Source: a virus (taxonomy: Duplodnaviria; Caudoviricetes). Taken from it: a DNA stretch of 64,000 nucleotides. This document shows, in pieces, positions 8,618 through 38,899 of this stretch; the stretch's first letter is position 1, and each line of letters opens with the position of its first letter. The translations under genes were made by a program, and so were the position numbers. The DNA lies in IMG/VR virus record IMGVR_UViG_3300020148_000032; one strand, given 5' to 3'. The notes under the pieces are model-generated. The model was not told the origin of the DNA and searched no databases. It saw only the letters and a program-made list of their open reading frames with translations.

Positions 8618-8965
8618 TTACTGGTCAAATGGAGAATCATTGTCTCTCCATAAATCAAAATCTTCAGATTCATCCTCATGTATGAGGTCAATATCTTCTA
8701 ATTCTTCATTGTGTTCAATATCTATTTTAACTTCTTTAACAGTCGTTTCTTCAGATTTTTGAATATTTTTTAATGGTTCTTCTTCAATTTCAGAGGTTCT
8801 ATTATATTCACCTCGCGAAAGCTCTTTTATTAACTCTAATTTTAAACTTTGTGCGTTATTGATAATAGTATCTAATTCTGAAACTTTTGCTTTAGCTTTT
8901 TCAATAATGTCTTGAGTTTTATGTAAAGATTGAATTAATTCTCTTGCCTCTTCAAATTCATCCAT
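8618..8965 (-). CDS. Hypothetical coiled-coil acidic protein
   Basis: 115-aa ORF overlapping the PBP stop; GGGAG SD upstream. Confidence 0.7.
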   Translation of the reverse strand: MDEFEEARELIQSLHKTQDIIEKAKAKVSELDTIINNAQSLKLELIKELSRGEYNRTSEIEEEPLKNIQKSEETTVKEVKIDIEHNEELEDIDLIHEDESEDFDLWRDNDSPFDQ

Positions 8966-11323: not shown

Positions 11324-12100
11324 TTAAAATAGTTCGGGATTAGTAAGATAAAGAGCGTTAAGATCGTCAACATCTTTCTTAGTATCCATAGCATGCCAGA
11401 AGCCTTCATGATAATAATAACCAAGCTCTCCAGCCTTACTCATTTCAGTAAGAGCTTCAAAACTAAAATCTCCACTTTGCGAATTTACTTTTGAAAGAAC
11501 CTTGTGATCACAAATAATAAACCCACCATTAATAAGTTCGTTCTTAGTATGTGACTTTTCAGAGAAAGAAAGAACTTTTCCTTTTTCGTCAGTTTCTAGA
11601 ACTCCGAAACGTTCGCTCTTATTAACAGCAGTAATGGTAGCAACAGAATTAGAGTTAAAGTGCTGTTCTTCCACTTTACTCAAGTCAACATCACTTAAAC
11701 TGTCTCCATAAGTGAGGAAGAACGACTCTCCATCGTTAATATATTGTCTTACAGCATTAAGACGTTGACCAGTAGTGGATTTCTCACCAGTTTCTACAAC
11801 GCGAACAATCCAATCTTCTACTTCATCATTATCTTCAATGTTCATTCCATATTTAGTGAAAACAACGCTCCTCTTTGAGAATCCGTAATCTCTAAAGTAC
11901 TTTTTGAACTCATCGCTCTTGTACCCAACTGCAAGAATGAATTCCCTATAACCCTGTTTATAAAAATGTCTCATAATGTGAACGATCACTGGATCTGGAC
12001 CAATAGGAACAAGAGGTTTAGGTATCATTTCTGTCTTCTCTGACAGTCTAGTTCCTGCACCTCCAGCAAAAATAACAACTTTTTTAATCTTTTGACACAT
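11324..12100 (-). CDS. rfbF: Glucose-1-phosphate cytidylyltransferase
   Basis: VIFAGGAGTRLSEKTEMIPKPLVPIG, LTYGD, INGGF, HEGFWHAMDT; adjacent to rfbG. Confidence 0.88.
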   Translation of the reverse strand: MCQKIKKVVIFAGGAGTRLSEKTEMIPKPLVPIGPDPVIVHIMRHFYKQGYREFILAVGYKSDEFKKYFRDYGFSKRSVVFTKYGMNIEDNDEVEDWIVRVVETGEKSTTGQRLNAVRQYINDGESFFLTYGDSLSDVDLSKVEEQHFNSNSVATITAVNKSERFGVLETDEKGKVLSFSEKSHTKNELINGGFIICDHKVLSKVNSQSGDFSFEALTEMSKAGELGYYYHEGFWHAMDTKKDVDDLNALYLTNPELF

Positions 12101-13172
12101 GGAGGAACTCCTTTATCTGTGTAGTAGTAATCTTATTAACATTGTACCCATTAATCCATTGTAAATACCATATAAATGTCTTATTAAGTATTTTTTCTTT
12201 TGTTTCCCACTCTGGCGCCCAATCAAAAGTTTCTCTGAATTTTGAACTATCGAGAGTGAGTATATTTGTTTCATGGAATTTCTCACCGTTAGAAGCATCA
12301 ATGATTTCTACTTTTAATTTTTCATGAGCGAAATCTGAGATTTCTTTAGTCTTCATGATACTTTCAGGATTAGGGCCAATATTGTAAGCTCCAGCGACAA
12401 CTGGGTTCTCATATTGTTCCTTAGCGAGGATTACATATGCAAAAACTGCATCAAGAACATGTTGATATGGTCTTACACTATCAAAGTTTCTAATAGAGAC
12501 GGAACTTTTGTTCTTCAATGCCCTTACAATGTCTGGAACAATACGATTAGCGGCAAAGTCTCCACCACCGATTACATTACCAGCGCGAACAGTTGAAAGG
12601 ATCTTCTCATTAGGGTCATTTTTAAAATACGATTCATTATAAGAATAACTGAGAATTTCTGAACAAGATTTACTTGAAGAATAAGGGTCACTACCCATTA
12701 ATTCTTCATCTTCTTTATACCCCTCTGATTTCTCATAATTCCGATAAACCTTATCAGTAGTAATATTAACGATAGACATTTTCTTTGGAGTTTTTCGTAC
12801 TCCTTCAAAAATATTTAGAGTACCCATGACATTAGTGAGATAAGTAGTATAAGGGTCCTCATAACCTACACTTACAATTGGTTGAGCCGCAAGATGGAAA
12901 AGAATGTCTGGTTCTTCAAAAGCGATAATATCTGACACTACTTTACTGTTAATGTCAAAATCATAAGAGTTAATACCCATTTCTTCGAAGTTCATTAATG
13001 GATATAAGACAGCTTCTTCTTGCTGGACTCCGATACCGACAACTTCCGCTCCAAGTTCATGAAGCAATGCCGCTAGCCAAGACCCCTTAAAGCCTTGGAT
13101 ACCAGTAATAACAACATTTTTACCTGCATAAAATGCTTTGAGCTCTTCCACTCTTTTATGATTCGAAAGCAT
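12084..13172 (-). CDS. rfbG: CDP-glucose 4,6-dehydratase
   Basis: ITGIQGFKGSWL, FHLAAQPIV, TTDKVY, DPYSSSK, VRAGNVIGGGD, RPYQHVLD. Confidence 0.93.
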   Translation of the reverse strand: MLSNHKRVEELKAFYAGKNVVITGIQGFKGSWLAALLHELGAEVVGIGVQQEEAVLYPLMNFEEMGINSYDFDINSKVVSDIIAFEEPDILFHLAAQPIVSVGYEDPYTTYLTNVMGTLNIFEGVRKTPKKMSIVNITTDKVYRNYEKSEGYKEDEELMGSDPYSSSKSCSEILSYSYNESYFKNDPNEKILSTVRAGNVIGGGDFAANRIVPDIVRALKNKSSVSIRNFDSVRPYQHVLDAVFAYVILAKEQYENPVVAGAYNIGPNPESIMKTKEISDFAHEKLKVEIIDASNGEKFHETNILTLDSSKFRETFDWAPEWETKEKILNKTFIWYLQWINGYNVNKITTTQIKEFLHVSKD

Positions 13173-17067: not shown

Positions 17068-17107
17068 GAGAATCCTTTCAATAAAGTATTACAACAACAC
17101 ATGTCTC

Positions 17108-17136
17108 ATGTTATCATGTTTTTAGAAATGTGTCAA
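17108..17136 (-). promoter_or_regulatory. Sigma70/SigA-like promoter for MoxR-1
   Basis: TTGACA-17 nt-TAACAT on the minus strand. Confidence 0.65.
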
Positions 17137-17151
17137 ATATACTCTTATAAT

Positions 17152-17179
17152 AAAAAAGCGACCCGAAAGTCGCTTTTTT
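17152..17179 (-). terminator. Rho-independent terminator after recA
   Basis: aaaaaagcgac-ccgaaa-gtcgctttttt. Confidence 0.85.
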
Positions 17180-17196
17180 ATATTGTTTTCTACAAT

Positions 17197-18297: not shown

Positions 18298-18502
18298 TTT
18301 ATTTCCTACTTACCTTAGTGTTGATTACTTTCTATTGAGAGAAATGTAATACTATTCTACCAAAAATAGGTTTCTAAACTGAATCTCTCGCAAACTTTTT
18401 AAAACTCCAAGTTGGCTTCTATGCGAAAATGAGAACAAAAAACATTAAAGTTGCTGAACTATACAGAAAACAGATTTTCTTTAAAAAATCGAAAATATTC
18501 TA

Positions 18503-18552
18503 AAGAATGTCAGCTATACACACGTAATAGTGTTATTATAGCTGACATTCTT
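18503..18552. repeat. 16-bp perfect inverted repeat (terminator/operator) after VWA-1
   Basis: aagaatgtcagctata / tatagctgacattctt with an 18-nt loop. Confidence 0.75.
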
Positions 18553-18571
18553 AGTTTAAAAAGTGAGATTA

Positions 18572-20041
18572 TCACTTTTTCTTAATAGATGCGGAAATAT
18601 CAATGACTGTTGCTAATTTTTTAACAGAATTAGGAATTGCATGAAAAGAATCCTCAGAAGTAATCAGGATAATGGACTTATAACTACCATGTGACTCGGA
18701 AAGTTCGCGCTCGACTCTACTCCAATCAGTAAAACCGTCAGTCGCGAGCACGAAAACATCGGGGCTCTTCCTCTTTGGTAAAGAATTAATGAACTTGAAA
18801 GCAACACTCATGTCAGTGCCGCCACCACCAGCGAGGTTTACCTGATCATAAGATCTAACAAGCTCAATCTTTTCAACCTGAGTAGTGACACAAAAAACTC
18901 CCACTCCATTCTTATTCTTCGAAAGAGTCTTAAGAATAGAATTAATTTCTGCAAAAGCATTTGCATAATCTTTAGAACTCATAGAGCCGCTAGTATCAAG
19001 ACCAATAATAGCGGTCGGCGTATACTGCACGACTCCAGGGAACACGTATTCACTATTAGCAAAACGGCGATTAGATCTCTTGTAAGAGTAATCAACACGA
19101 CCGCGCACAACATTCTCAAATGAACGAGAGAGAGCGCTTCGGAAAAGTGTTACCCATGAAACCTTAGGTGGTTCAAGTCGATCAAGAGCAACCTGTAAGA
19201 AATCATGCATGTAATCACTACCAAAATTCTTTGACTTCTTCAATTCCTCAACAATGCGTGCCCTTGCATTTTGCTTCATCACGGTTTGTTCAGCTTTAGA
19301 AGCCTGTTCAATACCTGCATTGTCAGCGGCTTCTGACCTCTGTGAAGTGGGGACAGCACATGTATAAGGAGTCTCACCATCTTTATTTCCATTGTTTTTA
19401 GAGTTTGAAGATGAGCCATTAGATTCAGATCCATCACCTTCAGATTCGCCTGAAGATGAACCTTCTCCATCCATTGGAATTCCGGCGCCTGATTGAGGTT
19501 CTCCAACTGAATCAGACATTTCGCCAAGAAGTTTCTCCAACTCAGCCTTCTTTTCCTCATCGTTCATATCTTCATTAAGAAGATAAATATACTGCTCCAT
19601 CGTAAGATCAAGAGGATAATTAAAAGGTTTCTTGTCAGGCATAATTGCAGAACCAAGGTCGATCTTTCGGACTCTAGAAAGCGAAGAGTTAATTTCGAAA
19701 TCTCCACCAATATTCATGAGTTCCATCTTGTACCCATTAGTACGAGCGCGAGCAAAATGATTATTAAGAACGTGCATCACTTCATGAAGAACAATAGCGC
19801 CACGCATTCTCACATTCTGCTCGAAAAACCAAGGCCCTAAACCGACTCGAGCGTGTTCGTCCGTATAAGCAGTAGAGCAACTCCCATCAAAGAACGGTCG
19901 CAAAAGTGCAACACCATCACGAAATGCTGGAACACAATCCAAAGCCATAGAAACAGACTGAGAGTAAAGTTCTGTTTCTCTTTCATTAAGCTTGCGAACA
20001 AGTGAATCTAGATTCACAAACATAGCTTTCGAAGAGTCCAT
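18572..20041 (-). CDS. DUF2201-type HExxH metallopeptidase-like + VWA protein (MoxR partner 1)
   Basis: VLHEVMHVL, DFEINS, Ser/Gly linker, MIDAS DTSGSM, GGGGTD, ATDG. Confidence 0.85.
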   Translation of the reverse strand: MDSSKAMFVNLDSLVRKLNERETELYSQSVSMALDCVPAFRDGVALLRPFFDGSCSTAYTDEHARVGLGPWFFEQNVRMRGAIVLHEVMHVLNNHFARARTNGYKMELMNIGGDFEINSSLSRVRKIDLGSAIMPDKKPFNYPLDLTMEQYIYLLNEDMNDEEKKAELEKLLGEMSDSVGEPQSGAGIPMDGEGSSSGESEGDGSESNGSSSNSKNNGNKDGETPYTCAVPTSQRSEAADNAGIEQASKAEQTVMKQNARARIVEELKKSKNFGSDYMHDFLQVALDRLEPPKVSWVTLFRSALSRSFENVVRGRVDYSYKRSNRRFANSEYVFPGVVQYTPTAIIGLDTSGSMSSKDYANAFAEINSILKTLSKNKNGVGVFCVTTQVEKIELVRSYDQVNLAGGGGTDMSVAFKFINSLPKRKSPDVFVLATDGFTDWSRVERELSESHGSYKSIILITSEDSFHAIPNSVKKLATVIDISASIKKK

Positions 20042-21893: not shown

Positions 21894-22577
21894 TTACATA
21901 GTAAAAAGATTAATAGGTTCGTCTATTTCTATTTTATCATCGTTCCAGCTAGGTGGAGCAAGAAAGCAAGAAATATTACTTTTTCGTGCGAGTTCTATAG
22001 TTTTAGACTTAAATTCTACAGCAATGAGAACTCCCTTGAAAGCTCTTTCTGGAAACCTTTCATTCAACGCCTCAAGATATCTCTTTACCTGACCAACACT
22101 GTTAAGAGACGCCCAACGTTTAACTTCTATTACTAATTCTTCATCAGAATCTTCAAGGTCGGCAATAATATCTACTGGGCCTGCTCCTGTTTCAAACTCT
22201 CTTGACCTAAAAACAGCACCGGGAATAATAGAGTCAAGATTTTCTGAAAGCCATAATTGTAATTGTGACTCAGTTTTATCACGGATAAGACCTGGATCAT
22301 CTGTACCTATATCGAAATTAGTGTCTTGATAAGTTTCATGGAGAGTCACTAATAGAGATTCATCCTTAGAGTAGAATTCAAGGAGTCTCTCTCCATTTAC
22401 ATCTTTTTCTTCGAAAGAGCGTGTCATCATCATGTAGTTAAGAGGTTTATATCCTTTTTCATTATGAACACTTACTGAACCGTCATTTTTAATAAGAAGC
22501 ATTCGTTTATAAGGAGGTAAATATGACTCTCCTCTTCCAGAATAAACAACTGAAAGCTCAGCAATAATAACTCTCAC
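21894..22577 (-). CDS. nucS: Mismatch-specific endonuclease NucS/EndoMS
   Basis: YSGRGES, LLIKNDGSVSVH, KPLNYM, ESQLQ, REFETGAGPVDII, VIEVKR, GQVKRY. Confidence 0.92.
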   Translation of the reverse strand: MRVIIAELSVVYSGRGESYLPPYKRMLLIKNDGSVSVHNEKGYKPLNYMMMTRSFEEKDVNGERLLEFYSKDESLLVTLHETYQDTNFDIGTDDPGLIRDKTESQLQLWLSENLDSIIPGAVFRSREFETGAGPVDIIADLEDSDEELVIEVKRWASLNSVGQVKRYLEALNERFPERAFKGVLIAVEFKSKTIELARKSNISCFLAPPSWNDDKIEIDEPINLFTM

Positions 22578-22838: not shown

Positions 22839-25298
22839 CTACTCAAAATTTACTTGAACAGGCATACTAGAATTAGTCGTAGAATTATTACCGAGTTGAC
22901 CATTACCGTTAAGACCCCAAGTATATACTTTACCGTCGGAATCAAGGGCAAGGGAATGATGATTTCCCGCTGCTATTGTGGTTATTGTCTTGCCAGCGAG
23001 TACACCGCTAGTGTTAACTTGAACAGGTACGCTAGCACTAGTCGTAGAATTATTACCGAGTCGACCGGCACTGTTATTACCCCAAGCATAGACTTTACCT
23101 TCGGAATCAAGAGTGAGAGAATGATAACCGCCAGCTGCTATTGTGGTTATTGTTTTGCCAGCGAGTACACCGCTAGCGTTAACTTGAACAGGTACGCTAG
23201 AATTAGTCGTAGAATTATTACCGAGTTGACCGGAATCGTTACGACCCCAAGTATATACTTTACCGGCAGAATCAAGAGCCATAGAGTAATAGTCCCCCAC
23301 TGAGATTGCTGTTATTGTTTTGCCAGCGAGTACTCCGCTAGTGTTGACTTGAACAGGTATGTTAGAATTAGTAGTAGAATTATTACCGAGTTGACCGGAA
23401 TTGTTATAACCCCAAGCATAGACTTTACCTTCGGAATCAATCGCAAGAGAATAAGTACTGCCCGCTGCTATTGCGGTTATTGTTTTACCAGCGAGTACCC
23501 CGCTAGTGTAAACTTGAACAGGTACGCTAGAATTAGTCGGAGAATTATTACCGAGTTGACCATAACTGTTAAGACCCCAAGCGTAGACTTTACCGTCAGA
23601 ATCAATGGCAAGAGAATGAGCACCGCCACCGGAGATTGCGGTTATTGTCTTGCCAGCGAGTACACCGCTAGTGTCAACTTGAACAGGTACGCTAGAATTA
23701 CTCGTAGAATTATTACCGAGTCGACCAGAAGCGTTATTACCCCAAGCATAGACTTTACCTTCGGAATCAAGAGCCATAGAGTGATAGACTCCCGCTGCTA
23801 TTGCGGTTATTGTCTTGCCAGCGAGTACACCGCTAGTGTCAACTTGAACAGGTACACTAGAATCAGTCGTAGAATTATTACCGAGTTGACCATAACTGTT
23901 AAGACCCCAAGCATAAATTTTACCTTCGGAATCAAGAGCGAGGGAATGACTACCTCCTGCTGCTACCGAAACAATATTTGTAATATCTGGAAGATCATTC
24001 ACAGTCTTTTCAATTACTGGTGAGTAACCGGAAGAGTTATAGGCCGATACGCTTGCTTTAACTGTTGTTGCTGTTACTCCAGTCGGTCTGGAAATGTTCG
24101 TTGACGTTACTGATGAACTAACAGTGGTTTCTTCTGTAAAGACAATATTATTGCTAGAGTCGTATCCAGTGAGGGTTATTTTGTAGCCTTGGTGGTTAGA
24201 GTTGGTTGTGTCTGTCCATGTTATGTCGTAAGAGTGATTATTGTTAAGTACGTTTGGTGTTAGTTCTACATTGTCAACAGAATCAGGTGCGAGGATGATT
24301 TGTTCAATTTGACTAGTTTTTTTATCGCTACTTCCAAATCTATTAAGTGCTTCGACTCGAGCAATAGCGTATTTAACATCAGAACCATTAGTGCTAGTTA
24401 CAGTAGTTGAAAGGGTGTCGCCAACAGTTTTGCTAACAGAGCCAATATAATTTGGGTCAGTGTTATTCATCTGAATCACAATAGTTCCAAGGCTCGTACC
24501 TCCACTTGAAGGGTTGGCAGAGTACTCATCAACGGTTACTTGGTACCCAGTAATAGATGGGTCATTAGGGTCTTCCCATGTTACATCATAAACTAGGTTA
24601 GAGTCATTAAGTGAATATGAAAGATTCGCTTCAGGTGTTACTTGTGGGAGTAGAGCTCTTACTTGTGTGAGCGTGAAGTTTACACTGTTAAGGGGTATGT
24701 TTGTTTGCATGTTTTCGGTTGCAGTATCTTTGAACCATAATCGTAACTCAACAATTACATCAGTAATACTGCCGGGGGTAATCTCGAGATTTGATGCGAT
24801 GAGACTGTCTTGTATTGGAGCGTCAGCATAATTTGGACTTGAAAAAAGTATAGAGTAATTATCGTTAATGTTTATCCAAGAACCATTATTGATACGATAA
24901 TCAACTTCTATCTCGTTTGGAACAGTAGAATTTTGGAAATCAACAAGCAAATCGGCTAGAGCATGTTCTCCTTCGAGGGCTACTTGGACATCATATGTAC
25001 CGATAACAGTATCGCCCGGAACGATTCTGAAATCACTAATGTCTGTAATTGGCCCAGAAGCAGTCACTTTATCTAAGGACTCCTGAGAACCTTTACTTCC
25101 GTCTTTGAGAGATACGTCTTCCCAACTTGCATTAGTAACATTAAGATCAAGATTACCAGAATATATTTCTCCACCAGAAACTGTTGACTGGTCATTCCAA
25201 AGGGCGAATGTTCCACCGGCAGCAATTGCTGTAATAAGACCCAATCCTATTATTGTTGAGCCTTTAAGAATACTCTTATTCATAGAATGAAACTCCAA
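22839..25298 (-). CDS. Exported surface protein: SipW-type signal peptide/TasA-like N-domain, FN3-like domains, 7 RCC1/BLIP-II repeats
   Basis: AAGGTFALWND...IYSGNLDL alternate signal; YDVTW..YQVT and YDITW..YKIT FN3-like strands; seven 55-aa repeats. Confidence 0.85.
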   Translation of the reverse strand: MEFHSMNKSILKGSTIIGLGLITAIAAGGTFALWNDQSTVSGGEIYSGNLDLNVTNASWEDVSLKDGSKGSQESLDKVTASGPITDISDFRIVPGDTVIGTYDVQVALEGEHALADLLVDFQNSTVPNEIEVDYRINNGSWININDNYSILFSSPNYADAPIQDSLIASNLEITPGSITDVIVELRLWFKDTATENMQTNIPLNSVNFTLTQVRALLPQVTPEANLSYSLNDSNLVYDVTWEDPNDPSITGYQVTVDEYSANPSSGGTSLGTIVIQMNNTDPNYIGSVSKTVGDTLSTTVTSTNGSDVKYAIARVEALNRFGSSDKKTSQIEQIILAPDSVDNVELTPNVLNNNHSYDITWTDTTNSNHQGYKITLTGYDSSNNIVFTEETTVSSSVTSTNISRPTGVTATTVKASVSAYNSSGYSPVIEKTVNDLPDITNIVSVAAGGSHSLALDSEGKIYAWGLNSYGQLGNNSTTDSSVPVQVDTSGVLAGKTITAIAAGVYHSMALDSEGKVYAWGNNASGRLGNNSTSNSSVPVQVDTSGVLAGKTITAISGGGAHSLAIDSDGKVYAWGLNSYGQLGNNSPTNSSVPVQVYTSGVLAGKTITAIAAGSTYSLAIDSEGKVYAWGYNNSGQLGNNSTTNSNIPVQVNTSGVLAGKTITAISVGDYYSMALDSAGKVYTWGRNDSGQLGNNSTTNSSVPVQVNASGVLAGKTITTIAAGGYHSLTLDSEGKVYAWGNNSAGRLGNNSTTSASVPVQVNTSGVLAGKTITTIAAGNHHSLALDSDGKVYTWGLNGNGQLGNNSTTNSSMPVQVNFE
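22845..23975 (-). repeat. Seven coding tandem repeats, 165-bp unit (RCC1-like propeller blades)
   Basis: gccagcgagtacaccgctag recurs at 22992, 23157 etc.; the unit is 55 codons. Confidence 0.95.
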
Positions 25299-25964: not shown

Positions 25965-26876
25965 TCAGACATTATTTGCTACCTCTAATTCTTTATAAAA
26001 AGAATCAGCCGACTTCTTAGAAATCTTAAAATAATCAGCAATCTTACGCGCACTTAACTTATCAACATACGTAGAGAATACTCTTACCTCTTCCAAATCA
26101 AGCGGAATCACGTTAAAATCACGCACGCAAAAAATACATACTCTGCTATAACGATTCTCTCTATGAACCCGACAGTGAGCCGCCCATTCTTTCACATGAG
26201 AGTCATAAGTTTTAACTCCATTGACCTCTTGAACATGTTTTTGGCAAAACGAACGAGAATATTTCCTCTGAACCAGTTTAGAACAAAGAGGGTATTCACA
26301 CCGTTTATCGCTACTTATTACACCGTTTAATCGAGAATGACGCATACAATAACCATTACTTTTACTGCGCGATTGCTTACCGCATTCTTGATTCTTACAC
26401 AAAGCAGAACGCGAATCCTCATTCAACTCTTTAGCATGAACCTGGCAATATTGAAAATAATCTCCAGACCTTGCGACTCTCGCACATTCCTTCACAAGAC
26501 AAAGACCATCTTTAACTGTTAAGGAAAACCACGTTGATTCTAATGGATCCGAAAAGAATCTCTCTAAATAACGAATTGCTTTTGCTTGCTTTTCTGTAGT
26601 CCAAAGTTTATTATTTTTACTTTGATTGCAATAACGATGAGCATACTGAAGATTATCATTTGTATCTCCACCACCCAAAGACTTTGGAAGGATATGATCT
26701 ACAGTAAGGGATGCTGGATGAAACTTCTTGTTTATCTTTCCAGTATACACATTAGTAGGTATCGGTAAAAAACAAAGTCCACACAACAGACTAGAGTCTA
26801 AAACATATGAAGAGTCTATTTTATAAAGACTGTTAAAAGTCAGTATACTAGTCGTTACTTTCTTCAATTGGAGCAC
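25965..26876 (-). CDS. HNH endonuclease with C-terminal Cys/His-rich repeats
   Basis: CGLC...TVDHILPKSLGG...NLQYAHRYCNQSK; repeats CxxxxC...[FY]CxxH. Confidence 0.8.
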   Translation of the reverse strand: MLQLKKVTTSILTFNSLYKIDSSYVLDSSLLCGLCFLPIPTNVYTGKINKKFHPASLTVDHILPKSLGGGDTNDNLQYAHRYCNQSKNNKLWTTEKQAKAIRYLERFFSDPLESTWFSLTVKDGLCLVKECARVARSGDYFQYCQVHAKELNEDSRSALCKNQECGKQSRSKSNGYCMRHSRLNGVISSDKRCEYPLCSKLVQRKYSRSFCQKHVQEVNGVKTYDSHVKEWAAHCRVHRENRYSRVCIFCVRDFNVIPLDLEEVRVFSTYVDKLSARKIADYFKISKKSADSFYKELEVANNV

Positions 26877-28026
26877 CTACTGCTCGTTGTCCGTTGTAAC
26901 TTGTATAATCAACCTTGTGATGCACACGATTGTACGTCACAGTGATCTTAGCGTAGTTCGGTTGTGCTCGGGCGAGTACTTTACCTTTGTCGAGAGTACC
27001 GAACTTCTTATAAACTTCAGTCAATCCACCGCCTGTTTGGGTCGCTTCACTGTTGTAAGAGATCCCCTCGAAGAGCATGTTAATGAGTCCGTGTTTTGAT
27101 AACTCTAGCGAGGTAATCACATCGTTATTATGTTGTCCAAGGTGATTTATTTGAGTCTTTGTAGAGCTTAAGTAATAAGAGTAAACCCTTGTCCCTAATT
27201 TCCACATGACTGGAAGACTGAAAACAATACCGAATTTTTCCAGCCCTATGAATCCTGGGTTGCGTATTTTTACGGCAAGGTTTTCAATAGAGTTCATGAA
27301 ATCTTTATAGTCAAAGCCGTATTCTTCTTTAATATCTGAACATCTGTAGTAATCAAACTTGTTGTAGATTTCACCTGGAGCCATTGTTTCGCTACCTTTT
27401 TTGGCTTTCATGGCTAAACCTATAAAATCATCGTCAAGTGTCCAGTAGTGACTTTCTCCGATACTTCGCGAGAATGCGAGTAAAAAGTTGTAAATACCTG
27501 CTGTACCATGCATGTAATCGGGTGATTTTATTGAAGATACTAAATCAATCATTGTTTCATCTCTGAATGATGGATCTCTTACGATAATATGTTTTGGGTC
27601 GTGGTATTGCTTGTATTTTGCGTATTGTGTTGGGTCTACTGCTATGTAGTAATTTTTGACACCGAATCTCTCAAGTACTTTTACTGTTTTAGTGTCTTGA
27701 TACCTCTCATAGGAGGGGATATAAATGTTGAACTTCATTCCGTATTTTTCTTCGAAACCTGTCATGCAAGAGGGTTCGAATGTTGGGGGAATGTAAGCAG
27801 TCTTTTCGACAAGCTCACCATTAAGGTTCCTGAAGAATACTGGAAAGGGAATATGTCCGTCGGCGATGATTTCTTTTAGAGCCTCAGCCTCTTTAAAGTA
27901 TTCTTTCTTGTTCGTTTCAATGACTTCTTCATCGCTGTAGTGTTTGACATTTTCTTTAAGGGTAACTGAACCGTATTCGTTTATTGTGTAGAATTCGGTT
28001 TCTTTTGGTTCTTTTTTCTGAATCAT
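26848..28026 (-). CDS. TAGT-type (TET/JBP-associated, GREB1-like) GT-A glycosyltransferase, probable DNA base glycosylase-transferase
   Basis: IYIPSYER, GTAGIYNF, HYWTLDDD, HNNDVITSL, TQTGGGLT..Y..GTLDK and RVHHKVDY match the family pattern. Confidence 0.75.
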   Translation of the reverse strand: MIQKKEPKETEFYTINEYGSVTLKENVKHYSDEEVIETNKKEYFKEAEALKEIIADGHIPFPVFFRNLNGELVEKTAYIPPTFEPSCMTGFEEKYGMKFNIYIPSYERYQDTKTVKVLERFGVKNYYIAVDPTQYAKYKQYHDPKHIIVRDPSFRDETMIDLVSSIKSPDYMHGTAGIYNFLLAFSRSIGESHYWTLDDDFIGLAMKAKKGSETMAPGEIYNKFDYYRCSDIKEEYGFDYKDFMNSIENLAVKIRNPGFIGLEKFGIVFSLPVMWKLGTRVYSYYLSSTKTQINHLGQHNNDVITSLELSKHGLINMLFEGISYNSEATQTGGGLTEVYKKFGTLDKGKVLARAQPNYAKITVTYNRVHHKVDYTSYNGQRAVGAPIEESND

Positions 28027-28027
28027 A

Positions 28028-29281
28028 TTATCCCTCTAGATAGTCATTGTAGAGCTTGTGTGTGTCAATGTATTCGAGAGCCCATTCTTGTGGATCCTCA
28101 CCGGCAGGAATTTCTACACTTTCGTTAGTGAGAATGTTGATGAATTCTGCTGTACCGTTTTCGATATCAACTTTTAACATTTCTTCAAGAGCAGTTTCAA
28201 TTGCTCGTTGTTTTTTAATGTCTGCAACTTTTGCTTGTGTTGTACGGCGAGATTTCTGAGTACCATAATATTCATCTGGGTCTACGCCAAGAGTTTTGAT
28301 TCTGTGCTCATCATAATTATTTGTGATGATTTCGGCTCGTTCTTTCATTTCTTCAACATTTTTTGCAATTTCTTCCTTTGCGTCATATGTTTTGACAAAA
28401 TCTTCAGGGTTTGGTTGCATGTCAAAGAGAGAGAACATGTCTGCAGTCTTTCGTGGGCTCTTTTGAGCGGCGATTGCTTTTTTGCGTTCTTCCTCCTCTT
28501 TAATCTCTCGTGTTCTGTCAGCAGCCCATTCGGCAAGAGGTTTACTTTGAACGTATTCGCTCATTTGTGCGTTGTCAGAGTCAAGTCGGTAGTCAAGTAT
28601 TGTGTTACCGAAGTATGATACTGGGAGTATGTTATTACCGTAGAAACCGAGTGGTTCAAGTACTGGTCCAAGAGCTGGAATGTTGTCTACGTATTCATCA
28701 ACGTCAGAGTAAATCCATCGTTGGAATTCCTCCGAGCGGTTAATAACTAATCTTAGGAAGTCAGCTTTTTTGTTGCTGTCGTCTATCATAACTACCATGA
28801 TTGTATCTGAACCGTATCGTTTAGCAACTTCGTATCGTAAGTTACCGTCAATGATTTCATAACGACTGTTGATAAGGATCGGGTGAATGTATCCAGCGAC
28901 TTCGACTGCAGCTCTCACTTTTTCTACAGTATCAAAATTCATCCTCTTGTATTTGTTATTTGGAGTGATCTTTCGAAGTTCCATCGGTCCAAAATAGAGT
29001 ACATTGACATGGTCTGAGTCTTCATCAATGGTTGTTGACTCTACCTCATTATTGTGGTCAATGATGGAAAGTTTTGGCATGGTAAGTGAAATGTTAACGG
29101 TGACCGTTATACCTTTGAATGCGAACCAGCTTTCGATATATTCACTTACGTTTCTAATCTCTGTGTGGAGTTTTCCAGTGACGATATACCCAGCTTTATC
29201 TTTAATGATGTTGAGTACACCGTCAATGTTTTTATCTTCTTTTTGAAGATCTTGCAATAATTCTTTTTTTAAATTTTCCAT
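28028..29281 (-). CDS. ParB/Srx N-terminal domain protein of the modification operon
   Basis: GYIHPILINSRYEIIDGNLRYEVA; directly upstream of the TAGT gene. Confidence 0.75.
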   Translation of the reverse strand: MENLKKELLQDLQKEDKNIDGVLNIIKDKAGYIVTGKLHTEIRNVSEYIESWFAFKGITVTVNISLTMPKLSIIDHNNEVESTTIDEDSDHVNVLYFGPMELRKITPNNKYKRMNFDTVEKVRAAVEVAGYIHPILINSRYEIIDGNLRYEVAKRYGSDTIMVVMIDDSNKKADFLRLVINRSEEFQRWIYSDVDEYVDNIPALGPVLEPLGFYGNNILPVSYFGNTILDYRLDSDNAQMSEYVQSKPLAEWAADRTREIKEEEERKKAIAAQKSPRKTADMFSLFDMQPNPEDFVKTYDAKEEIAKNVEEMKERAEIITNNYDEHRIKTLGVDPDEYYGTQKSRRTTQAKVADIKKQRAIETALEEMLKVDIENGTAEFINILTNESVEIPAGEDPQEWALEYIDTHKLYNDYLEG

Positions 29282-29289
29282 TGTTGTCC

Positions 29290-30153
29290 TTATGAGAGAG
29301 TTTCTGGTAAGTCACAAATCGGGTGAGCGGTAAGTGTAAAACCCGGTAGGAAGTTTTTCCCTTCAGGTATTTCTACTATTTTACCAAAGAGTGGGAATTC
29401 TAGAGCACCTTTTTTGTAATGAGAGACTAGAGCTTCGGCAAGTTCGCTCAGGGTAATAGTATTCACTGGGTGAAACAACTCATATGTTCTTGTGCTTCCT
29501 AGTTCGAGAGTAGCAGCGAGTTCTGAGGCTTTAAGCAGCCCTCTTATTACGTCTCGTACATGTAATAGGTTAATCTTCTGATCCGCTGGTGAATTAAAAC
29601 TAAAGGTGTCTCCATTTTTAAGAGTGTTAGAAGCAAGATTGTGTACTTTTACTCGCCAGTCATTCGGGCCGTAAGTGTCTGGAAGAGTGAGGAAGACAGA
29701 TCGCACTTTAAAAGATGCAGCAAGAACTTCAACAGCTTTTTTAGTGGCCGCGTAAACTGTTGCTGGATGATATTCTCCGTTTTTGTCATATGCGGAGAAT
29801 GTTGAGGTAGAAACGAAAGTCGCTTGGGGGTTTCGCTCTGAAAGTTTTTGAAGTAAGTGAGTGCTGTAAATAATGTTACTTTCAACGAGTTTGTTAACAG
29901 TATCAGAATCGTCCCTAGTGTTATAGAGGGCAGCGAGGTGGAAAACTGCATCAATGTTCTCTACCACTGAGTCTAAACTCTCCGCAGTGCCGTCATAATA
30001 ATATGAGGTCACTTGATCAAGTATTTCATTTTTAACATGATGTGGGTAACTTCCAGCCCTGTAGAGAACGCTTACTTCGTGACCTTTTTTAAGTAGTTCT
30101 TCAACAAGTTGTGAACCAATGTAACCATTACCGCCGGTGACAAGATATTTCAT
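29290..30153 (-). CDS. NAD(P)-dependent NDP-sugar reductase/epimerase (extended SDR)
   Basis: VTGGNGYIG, VFHLAA, STST, YAATK, TYGP. Confidence 0.85.
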   Translation of the reverse strand: MKYLVTGGNGYIGSQLVEELLKKGHEVSVLYRAGSYPHHVKNEILDQVTSYYYDGTAESLDSVVENIDAVFHLAALYNTRDDSDTVNKLVESNIIYSTHLLQKLSERNPQATFVSTSTFSAYDKNGEYHPATVYAATKKAVEVLAASFKVRSVFLTLPDTYGPNDWRVKVHNLASNTLKNGDTFSFNSPADQKINLLHVRDVIRGLLKASELAATLELGSTRTYELFHPVNTITLSELAEALVSHYKKGALEFPLFGKIVEIPEGKNFLPGFTLTAHPICDLPETLS

Positions 30154-30702
30154 TTAGCGACCTACTTTTCTAGCAAATTCTGAGAAACTTTCTAACTCAA
30201 GATCGCGCGGACTTAAGAGCGCTTCCTCTTTAGTGATCCCCCAATTTAAGGGTAATTCAGTGTCGAATGGGTCAATTCCAGTATCTCCACCCGGAGAGAA
30301 GTCGGCTCCAGCGAGGTACAAAACTTTAGTGTAATCCTCAAGTGCGCGATAACCTAAAGCCCATTTTCCTGGAACGTAAAGTCTTTCTTCAGTTTCGACA
30401 GTAAGATTATATTCTCTCACCTCTCCGAATTCTGGAAGAGTTTCATCACAACATAAAACCCTTACTAATAATCCCTCTTTTGGACCAGTAATAAGTTTAA
30501 TAATCTTTGGTTGTGGAACATCAGATTGAAAGTGCATTCCACGGATAGTGTTCTTGTTGTTAGTAGTCATGAAAACTTCTTTGATTTCAAAACCTGGTAC
30601 TTCTATTTTTTCTGGAGTTTTACCGAAGAATTTCCGGTGAGAACCCCTTACATCATAATGAACAGAGTTTTCTACTAGAGCGGGATAAAGTGGGAGTGTC
30701 AT
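30154..30702 (-). CDS. RmlC/RfbC-like NDP-4-keto-6-deoxyhexose epimerase (cupin)
   Basis: DVRGSH, NTIRGMHFQ, LYVPGKWALGY, GIDPFD..L.WG, LSPRD. Confidence 0.85.
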   Translation of the reverse strand: MTLPLYPALVENSVHYDVRGSHRKFFGKTPEKIEVPGFEIKEVFMTTNNKNTIRGMHFQSDVPQPKIIKLITGPKEGLLVRVLCCDETLPEFGEVREYNLTVETEERLYVPGKWALGYRALEDYTKVLYLAGADFSPGGDTGIDPFDTELPLNWGITKEEALLSPRDLELESFSEFARKVGR

Positions 30703-30759: not shown

Positions 30760-30787
30760 TTTATAGCACCCCGAAGGGTGCTATAAA
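30760..30787 (-). terminator. Hairpin terminator with UUCG loop
   Basis: tttatagcaccc-cgaa-gggtgctataaa. Confidence 0.8.
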
Positions 30788-30798
30788 TTTTGAGAGAT

Positions 30799-31350
30799 TT
30801 AGACGTAAGCCTCTGAGAGGACCTTAATTAAAGCCTCTTGAAGCCTTTCTCTACGTGGTTGAGAGTCAATATAGAAGTTTGCAATTTTTGGTTGCTTCAT
30901 TCCTGCCTCTTCTGGAGTCTTGTCCTTCTTCCTACCATTACAGTCTGAACAAGCAGTGACAAGGTTGCCCCAAGTGTTCTTACCTCCACGTGACTTTGGG
31001 AATACGTGATCTATTGTGTCACCGTATTCTCCACAGTATTGACAAGTGTAGTTATCCCTCTTGTGAATGATGTTCTTCGCAACATCAGTCTCATTAGTGA
31101 CATACTTCTTTTGAGGTCCAGAAACTCGACCGACATACCTGTTAAGGCAAACCACGAGTGGGCGAGGAATGTTCACTTTTTGGCTTCTGATGAGAGAACC
31201 GTCTGAACGAGGAATAAGAGTGTAGGCCTTATTAGTCATTAAGAGCGTAACAGCATCTGTCCATTCAACTGTCCCGTTGACTTGCATTGCAGAGTCAACG
31301 ATAAGAACAGTGTTTTCGTGTATTTCCTTTTCAAGTATTTCGGTAGTCAT
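30799..31350 (-). CDS. HNH endonuclease (McrA-like)
   Basis: RDNYTCQYCG..TIDHVFPKSRGGKNTWGNLVTACSDCNGRK. Confidence 0.92.
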   Translation of the reverse strand: MTTEILEKEIHENTVLIVDSAMQVNGTVEWTDAVTLLMTNKAYTLIPRSDGSLIRSQKVNIPRPLVVCLNRYVGRVSGPQKKYVTNETDVAKNIIHKRDNYTCQYCGEYGDTIDHVFPKSRGGKNTWGNLVTACSDCNGRKKDKTPEEAGMKQPKIANFYIDSQPRRERLQEALIKVLSEAYV

Positions 31351-33335: not shown

Positions 33336-34775
33336 TTAAACAGTAAGTCTGAAATCCTTTAAATCATAAACCATGTCAGGTGAGCCCACTGCTTTATATA
33401 GCAATCGCTGAATAATTTGCGTGTCTCCAGGCTTGATTCCCATCCAGAACCAATTCTTCCTCATCATTTCATAGTCTTCATGAGAAGTTCCGTAGTTAAA
33501 GTATGTTTCACCATCAGTGATAACAAGAACATAAGACTTAGTCTTGTTCTCCCGGTCGTAAGTCTTAACGTACTGAAGAACGTTATCGATGTTAGTTCCA
33601 AAGCGACCAGCGATCCTCTTAAGAGTAGGGTCAAAAGGAACAACAGTATCAGACCACGTAATAGCATGAGGGATAATGTACTTGTCAGGAATGTTCATAG
33701 CAATGCTCGAAAGCTCTTCAATCGCATAACGCGGGATTGAGCCACTTACATCAAGTGCAAGAATAAGGTGAGGCGTAGTATCACCCTTACCAATCGGGTT
33801 CGGATTCTCACGGAAAGTAGGGAGAACAATTTCTGGGTAAGAATTTGCCATCTTCCGGCGAGGAGAATGCCACGACTCAACATACTTGCGCTTTCCAATA
33901 GACTTGATCTTCGGGTTAATCTTAGCAAGTAGATCATCCCACTCAAGAGTCACTGCAGTGTGGTTATTGCTGAAGACTGAACTCTTGTTAGGGTTAATGT
34001 TGATAGACACACCATTCGAACCCTTGACAGAATAATCATCGTTCTGTGCAAGAGCATCAAGGATGTCTTCAATAGCTTCAGTCATATCATCATTGTCAAT
34101 GTTTTCTGCAGCTTTATTGACAAGAACCGAAACAAGGTCCTTAAAATCTTGCAAGTTCTCTGAATCAACTCCAGTGACACCTCCGCAAGACTCAAAAATA
34201 GGCAATTCCTGCTGTTGAGAGCCAGAATCGCTAGAACCGTGACCTTCGGAAGAATCATTAGATTCGGAACCTTCTCCAGAGTCAGAACCTGATTCGGAGT
34301 CGTTAGGCATTTCAAGCTTGTCTTCAGTCTGGTCCTTAAGAGACATGATGTAATCATATGCCTGCTTTGTAGAAAAGACTGAGAAGTCAGCGCCATAAAG
34401 TGAAAGACCTGACATTCCACCTTCGGGAAGGTCAAGACCAGTGTTACCGAAGAGACCATCGTTGATAATGCACTCGTGAGCGTGAGTCAGAACCTGAGAA
34501 TCAGGATAGCTTACTCTGTCAGCAGCTTCCGAAAGGTGGTTAAGAACAATGTGATACGTCTCGTGAGCAAAAACAGCGCCAAGCTCGATATCAGACAACT
34601 TCTCAGCAAAATGAGGATTCACTTCGAAATAAATCTTCTTCTCATTGTGAACATATTTTACCTGAGCAGTAGGGATATTCTCGTTTTCAATAGGCTGACC
34701 GATTGATCGCGTTAAGGCGAAGAATGAAGGGCTGATAAAGGCGATTGCCTCTAGTCCGCGCTTGAAGTCATTCAT
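33336..34775 (-). CDS. DUF2201-type HExxH + VWA protein (MoxR partner 2)
   Basis: AHETYHIV, ECIIND, Ser-rich linker, DVSGS, FGT, VITDG. Confidence 0.83.
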   Translation of the reverse strand: MNDFKRGLEAIAFISPSFFALTRSIGQPIENENIPTAQVKYVHNEKKIYFEVNPHFAEKLSDIELGAVFAHETYHIVLNHLSEAADRVSYPDSQVLTHAHECIINDGLFGNTGLDLPEGGMSGLSLYGADFSVFSTKQAYDYIMSLKDQTEDKLEMPNDSESGSDSGEGSESNDSSEGHGSSDSGSQQQELPIFESCGGVTGVDSENLQDFKDLVSVLVNKAAENIDNDDMTEAIEDILDALAQNDDYSVKGSNGVSININPNKSSVFSNNHTAVTLEWDDLLAKINPKIKSIGKRKYVESWHSPRRKMANSYPEIVLPTFRENPNPIGKGDTTPHLILALDVSGSIPRYAIEELSSIAMNIPDKYIIPHAITWSDTVVPFDPTLKRIAGRFGTNIDNVLQYVKTYDRENKTKSYVLVITDGETYFNYGTSHEDYEMMRKNWFWMGIKPGDTQIIQRLLYKAVGSPDMVYDLKDFRLTV

Positions 34776-34821
34776 GTCTTTTACCCCTTGTTAGAATGTT
34801 TGAATTAATAGTATCACAGGT

Positions 34822-35892
34822 TTACGCGAGAGTAAAACCCTTAAGGCGCATTTCGTAACGAAGTTCACCCTTCTTGTAAGTGGTCCAACCCATCATAAGA
34901 GTGTTGACCTGTACGTCAGTGAAGTTCTGAAGGATTTCACCCCAGTTTTCAGCAATACGTGCAGGGCCAACACCCTTCGAAAGTGCATTAGCAAGAGCAG
35001 TGTTAAGTCGGTTAATCTCATCATTAGTGAGGTTCCCATCCTTGTAGATTGCTCGAAGAGCAAGGATATTCTTGCTGCTCCTAAGAAGCTCGTTGGGCAT
35101 GTTGACGAACTCGTTAACAGTTAGCCTAGACTTGCTATTCTTTGAGTTTGCGCGAACGTCAGCTGGAGTAAATGCTTCAGCGAGAAGGCGAGTCCACTGG
35201 TCGAGAGAAATAATTGCACCAGGGGTAAGAGTATCACGCAGGGTCTCCTTCTTAGGGATTGCCTGGAATGCGGATACCATCATATCCATACGACGCGGAG
35301 AAAGATAAACAGCCTTCTTAGCAACATTGTTCTTTACGGCGTTCTTATAGCTGTTGTTGTACTCTTCCCAGAGAGACTTTACGACTCGAGCCACATCGGT
35401 ACCGTACTTCTTCGAGAAGTAGCCAGCATCAATCGAAGGGGTAGAGTCGAGGAACACATCGAATCGGTCAAGAAGTGCAGGGTCGATATCATCGACAGTG
35501 TAAGAACCATCGTTAGGGTTGATAGCTGCAGCGACTGCCTTAAGGTTAGGGAGAGGCTCACCGTTAATAGTTCCAAACTGGATGATCTCGAAAAGAGTAT
35601 TCCGAGTCCTGTCATCTGCTCGGTTGAACTCGTCCATGATAACAATTTCTGCCTCATCGAGGTCACGAGGGCGGTAGAACTCTACGGTCTTGGTCTCCTT
35701 ATTAGGAACTGGGATACCCACAAGATCAGTGTAAGGGTCAAGGGTGGCGGTGGAGTAATACTTCACCTTGTACCCAAGCTGGTTTGCAGCTTCAGTAAGG
35801 ATAGCAGTCTTACCAGTACCGAGAGGGCCAGAAATGAGAATGTTGAGTCCATTGCTCATGTAGTTCTTCACGTTGTTTACATTGATAGCCAT
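34822..35892 (-). CDS. MoxR-type AAA+ ATPase 2
   Basis: GPLGTGKT, DLVGIP, IMDEFNRA, AAINP, DPALLDRF, SPRR. Confidence 0.87.
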   Translation of the reverse strand: MAINVNNVKNYMSNGLNILISGPLGTGKTAILTEAANQLGYKVKYYSTATLDPYTDLVGIPVPNKETKTVEFYRPRDLDEAEIVIMDEFNRADDRTRNTLFEIIQFGTINGEPLPNLKAVAAAINPNDGSYTVDDIDPALLDRFDVFLDSTPSIDAGYFSKKYGTDVARVVKSLWEEYNNSYKNAVKNNVAKKAVYLSPRRMDMMVSAFQAIPKKETLRDTLTPGAIISLDQWTRLLAEAFTPADVRANSKNSKSRLTVNEFVNMPNELLRSSKNILALRAIYKDGNLTNDEINRLNTALANALSKGVGPARIAENWGEILQNFTDVQVNTLMMGWTTYKKGELRYEMRLKGFTLA

Positions 35893-38113: not shown

Positions 38114-38899
38114 ATGGTGACTTATCTTACTGACATTTCTCATTCTGAGAAGGTTAGCGGAATGAAAGATGGAACTATAGGTTCTTTTCATTCTTGGGAA
38201 TTGGTAACAAGTGTTGACGGTCCTGGGACAAGACTGACTCTTTTTGTTAATGGCTGTCCACTTCGTTGTCTTTATTGCCATAATCCTGACACAATGAAAA
38301 TGAAAGATGGAAATCTTGTATCAGTAGAAGAAATTGGAAAACTTTTAAGAAGATATTCTCCGACTCTTAAGGCCACTAACGGAGGATTAACTCTTTCCGG
38401 TGGGGAAATTCTTATGCAGGCAAAATTTGCATTTAATCTCTTGAAAGAGGCAAAGAAACTTCATCTTCATACAGCTTTAGACACAAGCGGTTTCTTAGGA
38501 TTATATTGTACGCAAGACATGCTTGATCTTACTGATCTTGTCCTTCTAGATATAAAATCAGGTAATGAAGAAACATATAAAAAAGTCACTGGCAGGTCTT
38601 TACAACCAACAATAGATTTCGGAGAACGACTCGTAAAGAATAATAAGAAAATGTGGATCCGATTTGTTCTTGTCCCAGGGCTTACTGATGATGAACAGAA
38701 CATAAGAGATGTAGCAGATCTTATTAAAAATTGGAATACTGTTGAAAGAGTAGAAGTTCTCCCTTTCCATCAAATGGGTAAAGAAAAATGGCATGAACTT
38801 TCCATGCCGTATCTCTTAGAGGAAACTCTACCGCCAACATCAGAGGTGGTAGAGTTTGCCAAAAATATTTTTAAAGAATACGGTTTACCTGTTAAATAA
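38114..38899 (+). CDS. pflA: Pyruvate formate-lyase activating enzyme (glycyl-radical activase, radical SAM)
   Basis: HSWELVTSVDGPGTR, GCPLRCLYCHNPDT, GLTLSGGE, LDTSG, LLDIK, RFVLVPG, LPFHQMG. Confidence 0.92.
   Translation: MVTYLTDISHSEKVSGMKDGTIGSFHSWELVTSVDGPGTRLTLFVNGCPLRCLYCHNPDTMKMKDGNLVSVEEIGKLLRRYSPTLKATNGGLTLSGGEILMQAKFAFNLLKEAKKLHLHTALDTSGFLGLYCTQDMLDLTDLVLLDIKSGNEETYKKVTGRSLQPTIDFGERLVKNNKKMWIRFVLVPGLTDDEQNIRDVADLIKNWNTVERVEVLPFHQMGKEKWHELSMPYLLEETLPPTSEVVEFAKNIFKEYGLPVK

Follow-up and report, generated by a model that had tools for sequence, protein, structure and literature searches.

What would a huge phage-like element do with sugar-making enzymes encoded close to its replication genes, and what would receive the sugar? 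The question is raised by an operon in the virus record IMGVR_UViG_3300020148_000032 (Duplodnaviria; Caudoviricetes), of which we analyzed a stretch of 64,000 nucleotides (hereafter, the window). The operon comprises five minus-strand genes, read from 30702 to 25965, which encode an RmlC-like epimerase, a short-chain dehydrogenase/reductase (SDR), a ParB-fold protein, a TAGT-family glycosyltransferase, and an HNH endonuclease. The open reading frames (ORFs) were confirmed at these positions, the intergenic gaps are 0-8 nt, and the final two genes overlap by 29 nt. Profile scans of the window (Pfam or NCBIfam) covered nearly all ORFs of at least 100 aa. A preliminary description of the window had proposed this five-gene arrangement, which we recovered from the ORFs and from Pfam, NCBIfam, and PHROG scans, and had further proposed that a cytidine diphosphate (CDP)-linked 6-deoxyhexose is attached to a DNA base. 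The donor half of that proposal is upheld by enzyme families and gene linkage, the DNA-acceptor half is argued from context and family, and the HNH gene drops out of the core set on its distribution among relatives. With modest confidence, our best reading of the locus is DNA glycosylation with a self-made CDP-6-deoxyhexose, by a module common to a clade of huge phage-like elements. The glycosyltransferase’s own cluster lies on a 436,884-bp contig, and we regard this 437-kb uncultured element as a giant phage-like element; related elements reach up to 697 kb.

The glycosyltransferase gene (26848..28026, minus strand) encodes a soluble protein of 392 aa that matches the TAGT family (PF20691) with 39.3 bits against a cut-off of 27.5, over profile positions 1-205 of 205, and that gave no Glycos_transf_2 match in the Pfam scan. 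It also matched phrog_842, the T-even ‘beta-glucosyl-HMC-alpha-glucosyltransferase’ family, at 1e-23. The predicted structure has a GT-A fold (predicted local distance difference test, pLDDT, 82; predicted template-modeling score, pTM, 0.84). A structure search of this gene, which had been set beforehand as a check, returned strong viral matches: the best ones in BFVD were TAGT-domain phage proteins at a template-modeling score (TM) of 0.85, including T4-like phage ‘beta-glucosyl-HMC-alpha-glucosyl-transferase’ and phiRSL1 proteins. Fold matches in the PDB were weak (WrtF, K4CP, and TarP). The DDD motif at 198-200 is well conserved across 19 homologues, with D199 and D200 invariant and D198 kept in at least 90%. 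The family comprises 142 homologous clusters, many on contigs of 0.2-0.7 Mb, and the homologues likewise bear PF20691. Relatives detected by tblastn belong to T4-like Aeromonas phages and the Ackermannviridae phage Kuja, and in the Vibrio phages 1.124.O and henriette the homologue is surrounded by genes for helicases, Dam, a dUTPase, a DNA polymerase, and the clamp loader. Longer, fused forms of the glycosyltransferase were not found in our search, which is weak evidence. On its family, partner, and context, the enzyme is predicted to transfer its sugar to DNA.

The partner is the ParB-fold (ParB/Srx nucleoside triphosphate (NTP)-binding) protein of 417 aa encoded just upstream (28028..29281, minus strand). 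It has a small alpha/beta N-terminal domain, a ParB nucleotide-binding region at about residues 93-185, a conserved helical region at 186-230, and a long coiled-coil C-terminus. Two profile scores stayed under their cut-offs (Pfam ParB_N, 22.8 bits versus 26.3; TIGR00180, 19 bits versus 58), and the ParB_N assignment is confirmed by phrog_8071 (1e-12) and by the fold. Foldseek placed the AlphaFold model (pLDDT 79) with the pNOB8 ParB N-domain, Noc, ParB-CDP, and KorB at a probability of 1.0. The GxxR motif (G146, R149) is invariant across 43 homologues. An exhaustive profile search with the trimmed core grouped about 60 representative clusters into one family (E<1e-30), which a gap separates from generic ParB_N proteins; a word-indexed search with the full alignment gave 3 matches, owing to low-complexity words. 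The Atlas labels the family as viral, and its weak structural neighbors there (TM <0.4) include viral families of ParB_N-DNA-methylase fusions, which occur in phages. Of the features of a canonical segregation ParB, neither a recognizable helix-turn-helix in the model nor an adjoining ParA gene in the window was seen. Fusions of ParB folds to phage DNA methylases are frequent (PMC12704722). Phage thymine dioxygenases are activated on double-stranded DNA by ParB homologues that lack a DNA-binding domain (PMC13229309), and clusters for phage DNA hypermodification combine genes for a glycosyltransferase, ParB, and a sugar epimerase (PMC13229309; bioRxiv 10.1101/2023.12.21.572611). By analogy with these systems, the ParB-like protein is a predicted partner or activator of the glycosyltransferase.

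The sugar donor can be followed to a second gene pair about 13 kb away. As the preliminary description had stated, rfbG and rfbF lie in the replication operon. They occupy 11324-13172, immediately behind dnaB and a DnaC-like gene, and overlap each other by 17 nt. The CDP-glucose 4,6-dehydratase (RfbG/DdhB type; 12084..13172, minus strand) scored 358 bits with TIGR02622 (cut-off 278) and is the sole 4,6-dehydratase in the window. The glucose-1-phosphate cytidylyltransferase-like protein (RfbF/DdhA type; 11324..12100, minus strand) has TIGR02623 as its best match at 217.6 bits, under the equivalog cut-off of 300.25, and the next-best nucleotidyltransferase model reached 92 bits. The product of the RfbF and RfbG pathway is CDP-4-keto-6-deoxy-D-glucose. 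Two operon genes are suited to such an intermediate. The first operon gene (30154..30702, minus strand; 182 aa) encodes an RmlC-like NDP (nucleoside diphosphate)-4-keto-6-deoxyhexose 3,5- (or 3- or 5-) epimerase, which matches PF00908 (dTDP_sugar_isom) over its full length with 77.8 bits (E 1e-21). With TIGR01221 it reached 62 bits, short of the equivalog cut-off, and thus does not qualify as a dTDP-RmlC orthologue. In alignments with solved RmlC structures, its catalytic residues His (RGMHFQ) and Lys are conserved. The next gene (29290..30153, minus strand; 287 aa) encodes an extended SDR, a predicted NDP-4-keto-sugar 4-reductase (PF01370 Epimerase, 101.7 bits, E 6e-29), which keeps both the Rossmann motif GGNGYIGS (GxxGxxG) and the YAATK motif (YxxxK). 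With these catalytic residues and motifs conserved, both enzymes are predicted to be active on a 4-keto intermediate. The equivalog-level RfbG, an RfbF closest to TIGR02623, the epimerase and SDR motifs, and the gene linkage agree with the earlier proposal of a self-made CDP-6-deoxy sugar, and the predicted donor pathway, as read from the genes, is well supported.

The same gene run as rfbF holds two further genes. A class A penicillin-binding protein with transglycosylase, transpeptidase, and PASTA domains, which is unusual for a phage-like element to carry, is encoded directly after RfbF (8958-11315, minus strand). A protein of 226 aa (6701-7381, minus strand) has about seven transmembrane segments and is the only polytopic membrane protein of the window. 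It is without a Pfam or NCBIfam match, and its structure neighbors in the Atlas are Peptidase_A24 (prepilin peptidase) clusters of Bacillota, so that we describe it as prepilin-peptidase-like.

We then compared 11 related loci: three IMG/VR genomes (G001, a complete genome of 324,925 bp with terminal repeats, G002, and G003), three ENA/JGI contigs of 697 kb, 670 kb, and 130 kb, and five shorter contigs. The IMG/VR relatives came from an alignment-based search; a single-protein search found none. The module arrangement recurs in all 11 loci at 30-65% protein identity and is therefore not due to chance. A ParB-like homologue lies directly upstream of the TAGT gene in 11 of 11, apart from small insertions between the pair, namely a thymidine kinase gene in two loci (L005:9382-10002 and L016:9336-9932) and a GIY-YIG gene in L019. 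In one sub-lineage, two tandem, diverged ParB-like paralogues precede the TAGT gene (L015:7759-9955, L019:1453-3344, and L021:1425-3301). We had considered some of these intervening genes as hidden dioxygenases and rejected them, as the 206-aa gene of L005 is the thymidine kinase and the 343-aa and 275-280-aa genes of L015, L019, and L021 are the ParB-like paralogues. SDR homologues were found in nine loci, where they adjoin the ParB-like/TAGT pair except in L015 and L022 (a few kb off), and were not seen on the short contigs L019 and L021. The RmlC-like gene was found in seven.

Do the two gene sets form one pathway? It could be held that they are two unrelated systems, in which RfbF/RfbG and the penicillin-binding protein serve the envelope, the ParB-like/TAGT pair uses a host sugar such as uridine diphosphate (UDP)-glucose, and the RmlC-like and SDR genes are incidental. 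The sets lie 13 kb apart in the window, RfbF scores under its equivalog cut-off, and G001 and G002 keep the ParB-like, SDR, and TAGT genes without an RmlC-like gene beside the glycosyltransferase, their divergent dehydratase and nucleotidyltransferase genes being far away. Nevertheless, an epimerase and a 4-reductase require the product of a 4,6-dehydratase, for which RfbG is the only candidate in the window, and SDR genes are lacking only on the two short contigs. The position of RfbG after dnaB and a DnaC-like gene is repeated in G003, L023, and L024. The gene order in L023 is RmlC, SDR, ParB-like, and TAGT, followed about 7 kb on by RfbG and RfbF, the whole set spanning 13 kb; in L023 and G003 all module genes fall within 13-15 kb. 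The order in L024 is SDR, ParB-like, TAGT, DnaB, two small genes, RfbG, RfbF, and RmlC within 9 kb, so that RmlC is contiguous with RfbG-RfbF, 3 kb from TAGT, and the SDR gene stays with TAGT. On a Clostridiales-binned contig (L022:12724-14755), a UDP-galactopyranose mutase (GLF) gene and an SDR gene stand beside dnaB in place of RfbG/RfbF, which suggests that related elements do not all use the same donor sugar; a UDP-galactofuranose-type donor has already been proposed for phage DNA (PMC13326640). The sugar genes thus shuffle and yet stay linked, and this is our main argument that RfbF/RfbG, the RmlC-like protein, the SDR, and the glycosyltransferase form one pathway. We consider two independent systems quite unlikely.

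If the sugar is made by the element, what is its acceptor? Among the relatives, the module is always set among recA, dnaB, nucS, RNA ligases, and pairs of MoxR and VWA genes. RNA ligases of the T4 Rnl1 and Rnl2 types adjoin the module in the window, which would fit an RNA target (e.g., the tRNAs of the element); however, a ligase is not adjacent to the module in several relatives, and ParB-fold partners are known for DNA enzymes. To our knowledge, no member of the TAGT family acts on RNA, and we judge such a target highly improbable.

A more serious question is posed by the enzyme that would prepare the DNA. Known DNA glycosylation needs 5-hydroxymethylcytosine (5hmC) or 5-hydroxymethyluracil (5hmU), made by Tet/JBP or a ThyA-like hydroxymethylase, or 5-hydroxycytosine (5hoC), made by a D169N ThyA homologue (PMC13326640). 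Profile scans of the window ORFs found no Tet/JBP (PF12851), thymidylate-synthase homologue, or DNA methylase. The preliminary description had likewise seen no TET/JBP or hydroxymethylase there, and the same holds for the flanks of nine related metagenomic loci (8-10 kb; precomputed Pfam lists), where no acceptor-making enzyme was listed, and for the complete G001, where we found no C5-methylase, 2OG-FeII_Oxy_3, ThyX, or TGT. Tet_JBP was not found in G001 either, in a search that was without a positive control and in which four cultured TAGT-bearing phages also gave no match. The genomic association with Tet/JBP (5mYOX) that is expected of TAGT enzymes was thus not seen in the window, the nine flanks, or G001.

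The ThyA of G001 (L003:14404-15990, minus strand; also in L004) is a long protein of 528 aa encoded 3.3 kb from TAGT. Its N-terminus is extended by 64 aa, and about 205 aa are inserted at the site of the Lactobacillus-type small domain. We considered this ThyA as a hydroxymethylase and rejected it on its active-site residues. It is the single ThyA of this genome and keeps L143, D169, N177, and the C-terminus, so that it looks canonical by published criteria (PMC13326640). The thymidylate-synthase homologues of cultured TAGT phages, henriette 12B8 (L027) and Kuja (L028), deviate at the active site (Q165C; H147M; N177 kept) and, judged on these residues, may be dUMP hydroxymethylases. A radical-SAM gene of the window (38114-38899, plus strand) was considered as QueE, for a 7-deazaguanine route, and rejected, as it encodes the pyruvate formate-lyase activating enzyme PflA (TIGR02493, 300 bits, above the cut-off).

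The presence of PflA suggests an anaerobic host and a glycyl-radical metabolism driven by the element. Together with the PASTA-bearing class A penicillin-binding protein, Firmicute-type features in the relatives, and the Clostridiales-binned contig with a homologue, it indicates that the host is probably an anaerobic Firmicutes (Gram-positive) bacterium. Oxygen-dependent routes to an acceptor base are disfavored because the host is probably anaerobic, and the simple picture of a sugar on hydroxymethylated cytosine or uracil is weakened because neither the window nor the flanks of the relatives nor G001 yielded an acceptor-making enzyme.

Several observations weigh against DNA as the acceptor. 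In addition to the missing acceptor-making enzyme in the nine flanks and in G001, and the canonical-looking ThyA of the latter, the model of the ParB-like protein has no recognizable helix-turn-helix, and the protein is acidic, with an isoelectric point (pI) of 4.8. We rejected the pI as a test of DNA binding, since the whole proteome is acidic and the value is uninformative. Pyle et al. pointed out that GT-A genes without 5mYOX or ThyS neighbors may not act on DNA (bioRxiv 10.1101/2023.12.21.572611). GREB1, a member of the TAGT family, O-glycosylates a protein (PMC7968844). The gene run of RfbF includes the penicillin-binding protein, whose position after RfbF is kept in G003 (L010), and the prepilin-peptidase-like gene.

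Conceivably, then, the glycosyltransferase places the 6-deoxyhexose on another acceptor, such as a virion or pilus protein, the ParB-like protein itself, or a wall polymer (e.g., teichoic acid), so as to change surface recognition or exclude other phages. Of the observations just named, GREB1, the two genes in the run of RfbF, and the lack of an acceptor-making DNA enzyme would fit such a role, as would the PDB fold neighbors, among them TarP (a prophage wall-teichoic-acid glycosyltransferase) and polysaccharide GT-A enzymes. Jumbo phages are moreover known to carry NDP-sugar/glycosyltransferase clusters that are thought to remodel surface polysaccharide (PMC7824862). Against this, published DNA-active phage GT-A enzymes also have TarP as their top PDB match (bioRxiv 10.1101/2023.12.21.572611), and the glycosyltransferase lacks the Glycos_transf_2 signature. 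No membrane segments are predicted in the five operon proteins, RfbF, or RfbG. ORF profile scans of the window found a single glycosyltransferase and no Wzx/Wzy flippase, polymerase, exporter, or priming transferase, in agreement with the earlier statement that a flippase, polymerase, and lipid-carrier transferase are absent; the usual features of a surface-polysaccharide cluster (flippase or ABC exporter, polymerase, priming transferase, several glycosyltransferases) were therefore not seen. The invariant partner has a ParB fold, a known accessory of DNA-modifying enzymes, and in 11 of 11 loci the module lies among replication and recombination genes, not among structural or lysis genes. A non-DNA acceptor is thus possible though doubtful. 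We favor DNA because of the TAGT family, the invariant ParB-fold partner, the replication setting, which the cultured-phage relatives of the glycosyltransferase share, the single glycosyltransferase without membrane segments, the lack of flippase, polymerase, and priming transferase in the window, and the literature.

Glycosylation of DNA by this module could be envisaged in four steps. RfbF and RfbG, co-transcribed with the replicative helicase, would make CDP-4-keto-6-deoxy-D-glucose, as their family assignment and the established pathway indicate. The RmlC-like epimerase and the SDR would then yield a CDP-6-deoxyhexose, probably of the L series. The soluble TAGT GT-A enzyme, judging by its family, partner, and context, would move the sugar (about +146 Da) onto the element’s own DNA after replication, and the ParB-fold protein would serve as its cognate NTP-binding partner, holding or activating the enzyme on duplex DNA by analogy with the thymine dioxygenases. 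The likely benefit would be a shield against host restriction and against the element’s own orphan nucleases. A bolder form of this mechanism, which we regard as unlikely, is a ParB-gated glycosyltransferase that works without a hydroxymethyl- or hydroxy-pyrimidine precursor. The ParB-fold partner would load the enzyme onto duplex DNA, and the CDP-derived 6-deoxyhexose would go either to a canonical base or to an acceptor that an unrecognized, oxygen-independent enzyme supplies. If true, huge phages in anaerobic hosts would coat their DNA with sugar by an undescribed route.

How far does the module resemble known systems? Phage clusters for DNA glycosylation by GT-A enzymes with epimerase and ParB neighbors are already known. 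Among the closest are the ‘subclass II’ clusters of Pyle et al. (bioRxiv 10.1101/2023.12.21.572611), which are also viral and also place a TAGT/JGT-type GT-A enzyme with a DDD motif beside a sugar-nucleotide tailoring enzyme, with ParB-like genes noted among the neighbors. They differ in that 5hmC is made by a neighboring C5-methylase and 5mYOX (or by a ThyS homologue), none of which was found here, and in that their donors are drawn from the host pool (hexose, N-acetylhexosamine, hexuronic acid, Kdo, or heptose), whereas here the donor is self-encoded, CDP-based, and a 6-deoxyhexose, and the ParB-like protein is the invariant immediate partner. The 5mYOX176/ParB176 pair (O’Toole et al. 2026, PMC13229309) likewise sets a ParB homologue without an obvious DNA-binding domain beside a post-replicative DNA-modifying enzyme; its ParB has a nucleotide-binding domain and a C-terminal dimerization region and is specific for its enzyme. 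In our loci the partner is a glycosyltransferase and not a dioxygenase, 5mYOX was seen in none of them, and activation is a prediction.

Phage systems that build their own nucleotide sugars offer a second comparison. T-even phages and RB69, DLP3, and RL38J1 also make or tailor a nucleotide sugar (UDP-arabinose, UDP-galactofuranose) and move it to DNA (PMC13326640), and phrog_842 ties the glycosyltransferase described here to the T-even second-glucose transferase. These phages, however, replace cytosine before replication through a non-canonical ThyA homologue (N177D, D169N), a dCTPase, and a kinase, whereas the relative G001 has a canonical ThyA only. In kinetoplastid base J (JBP1/2 and JGT), a base is similarly glycosylated after replication by a GT-A enzyme, and among cellular proteins JGT comes structurally nearest to the phage DNA GT-A enzymes, as found by Pyle et al. 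(bioRxiv 10.1101/2023.12.21.572611); base J needs an oxygen-dependent JBP hydroxylase and UDP-glucose, in contrast to a CDP-sugar, a probably anaerobic host, and no detected Tet/JBP here. The O-antigen CDP-deoxy-sugar pathways of Salmonella and Yersinia (rfb/ddh) share the first steps by RfbF/RfbG and the subsequent tailoring by epimerase and reductase, but the module here has neither the E1/E3 pair for 3-deoxygenation nor Wzx/Wzy or a priming transferase, and it has a single soluble glycosyltransferase in a replication setting. In the cited literature, the starting base for phage DNA glycosylation is 5hmC, 5hmU, or 5hoC. A thymidylate-synthase homologue or an oxygen-dependent dioxygenase produces it, and the proposed donors are usually UDP-sugars. 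A survey of jumbo phages reported no Tet/JBP and treated NDP-sugar clusters as surface-related (PMC7824862). A limited literature search found no description of a deoxyhexose on phage DNA, of a ParB-glycosyltransferase pair, or of TAGT modules in huge phages.

Further features lie around the module. The last gene of the operon (25965..26876, minus strand; 303 aa; PF01844, 2e-10) encodes the HNH endonuclease and overlaps the end of the glycosyltransferase gene. A homologue at the same position (34% identity) was found in L021 and not in the other loci, and with so narrow a distribution we rejected it as a core component; on this pattern it is probably a homing-type insertion. At the other end, an intrinsic terminator-like hairpin (30760..30787, minus strand; 12-bp stem and T-run) marks the 5' boundary of the operon and parts it from a second HNH endonuclease gene (30799..31350, minus strand; 183 aa; PF14279, 3e-15). 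This upstream gene is a conserved neighbor: L014, L015, and L023 each carry a homologue in the corresponding place (36-54% identity), and L019 has a partial homologue there. Five relatives have a DsbA-like (Thioredoxin_4) gene for a protein of about 285 aa directly upstream of the module (L005:5970-6860; L014:6406-7257; L015:6360-7214; L016:5547-6413; L024:7208-7990), which is not at that position in the window. In G001 (L003:4254-7735), the module is immediately preceded by genes for SecY and SecA and has genes for ParA-like and AAA_10 (VirB4/TraC-like) ATPases downstream; a Pfam search of this genome for terminase gave sub-threshold matches only.

Within the window, pairs of a MoxR-type AAA+ gene and a VWA/DUF2201 metallopeptidase-like gene flank the module (15919-20041 and 33336-35892, minus strand) and are conserved in relatives. 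Just downstream of the operon, a protein of 819 aa (22839-25298, minus strand) combines an N-terminal hydrophobic segment with seven RCC1 repeats (PF00415, 1e-99). A NucS endonuclease (21894-22577, minus strand) and a restriction-like nuclease of the MvaI/BcnI family (41854-42741, minus strand) are also encoded. The window carries 47 CCWGG and 16 CCSGG sites together with the latter nuclease, and no methylase was seen. Four-letter palindromes show no avoidance in the window (observed/expected 0.78-1.08). Both observations are weak side evidence for DNA modification. The window DNA had no match in INPHARED, and an exact-match search of IMG/VR gave no copy of it.

In essence, what sets this module apart is a complete predicted CDP-6-deoxyhexose pathway, a glycosyltransferase coupled to a ParB-fold protein and not to a dioxygenase, and the lack of a recognized acceptor-making enzyme in what is probably an anaerobic host. 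The module is widespread in huge phage-like elements (142 glycosyltransferase clusters and about 60 representative clusters of the ParB-like protein). If the target is DNA, the module would add a new class of sugar to those carried by DNA, would extend the role of ParB as an activator of DNA-modifying enzymes to glycosyltransferases, and would point to an unrecognized, oxygen-independent way to make or choose the acceptor. DNA of this kind may be refractory to restriction enzymes and to CRISPR tools, and it may be under-represented or mis-called when gut or sediment viromes are sequenced.

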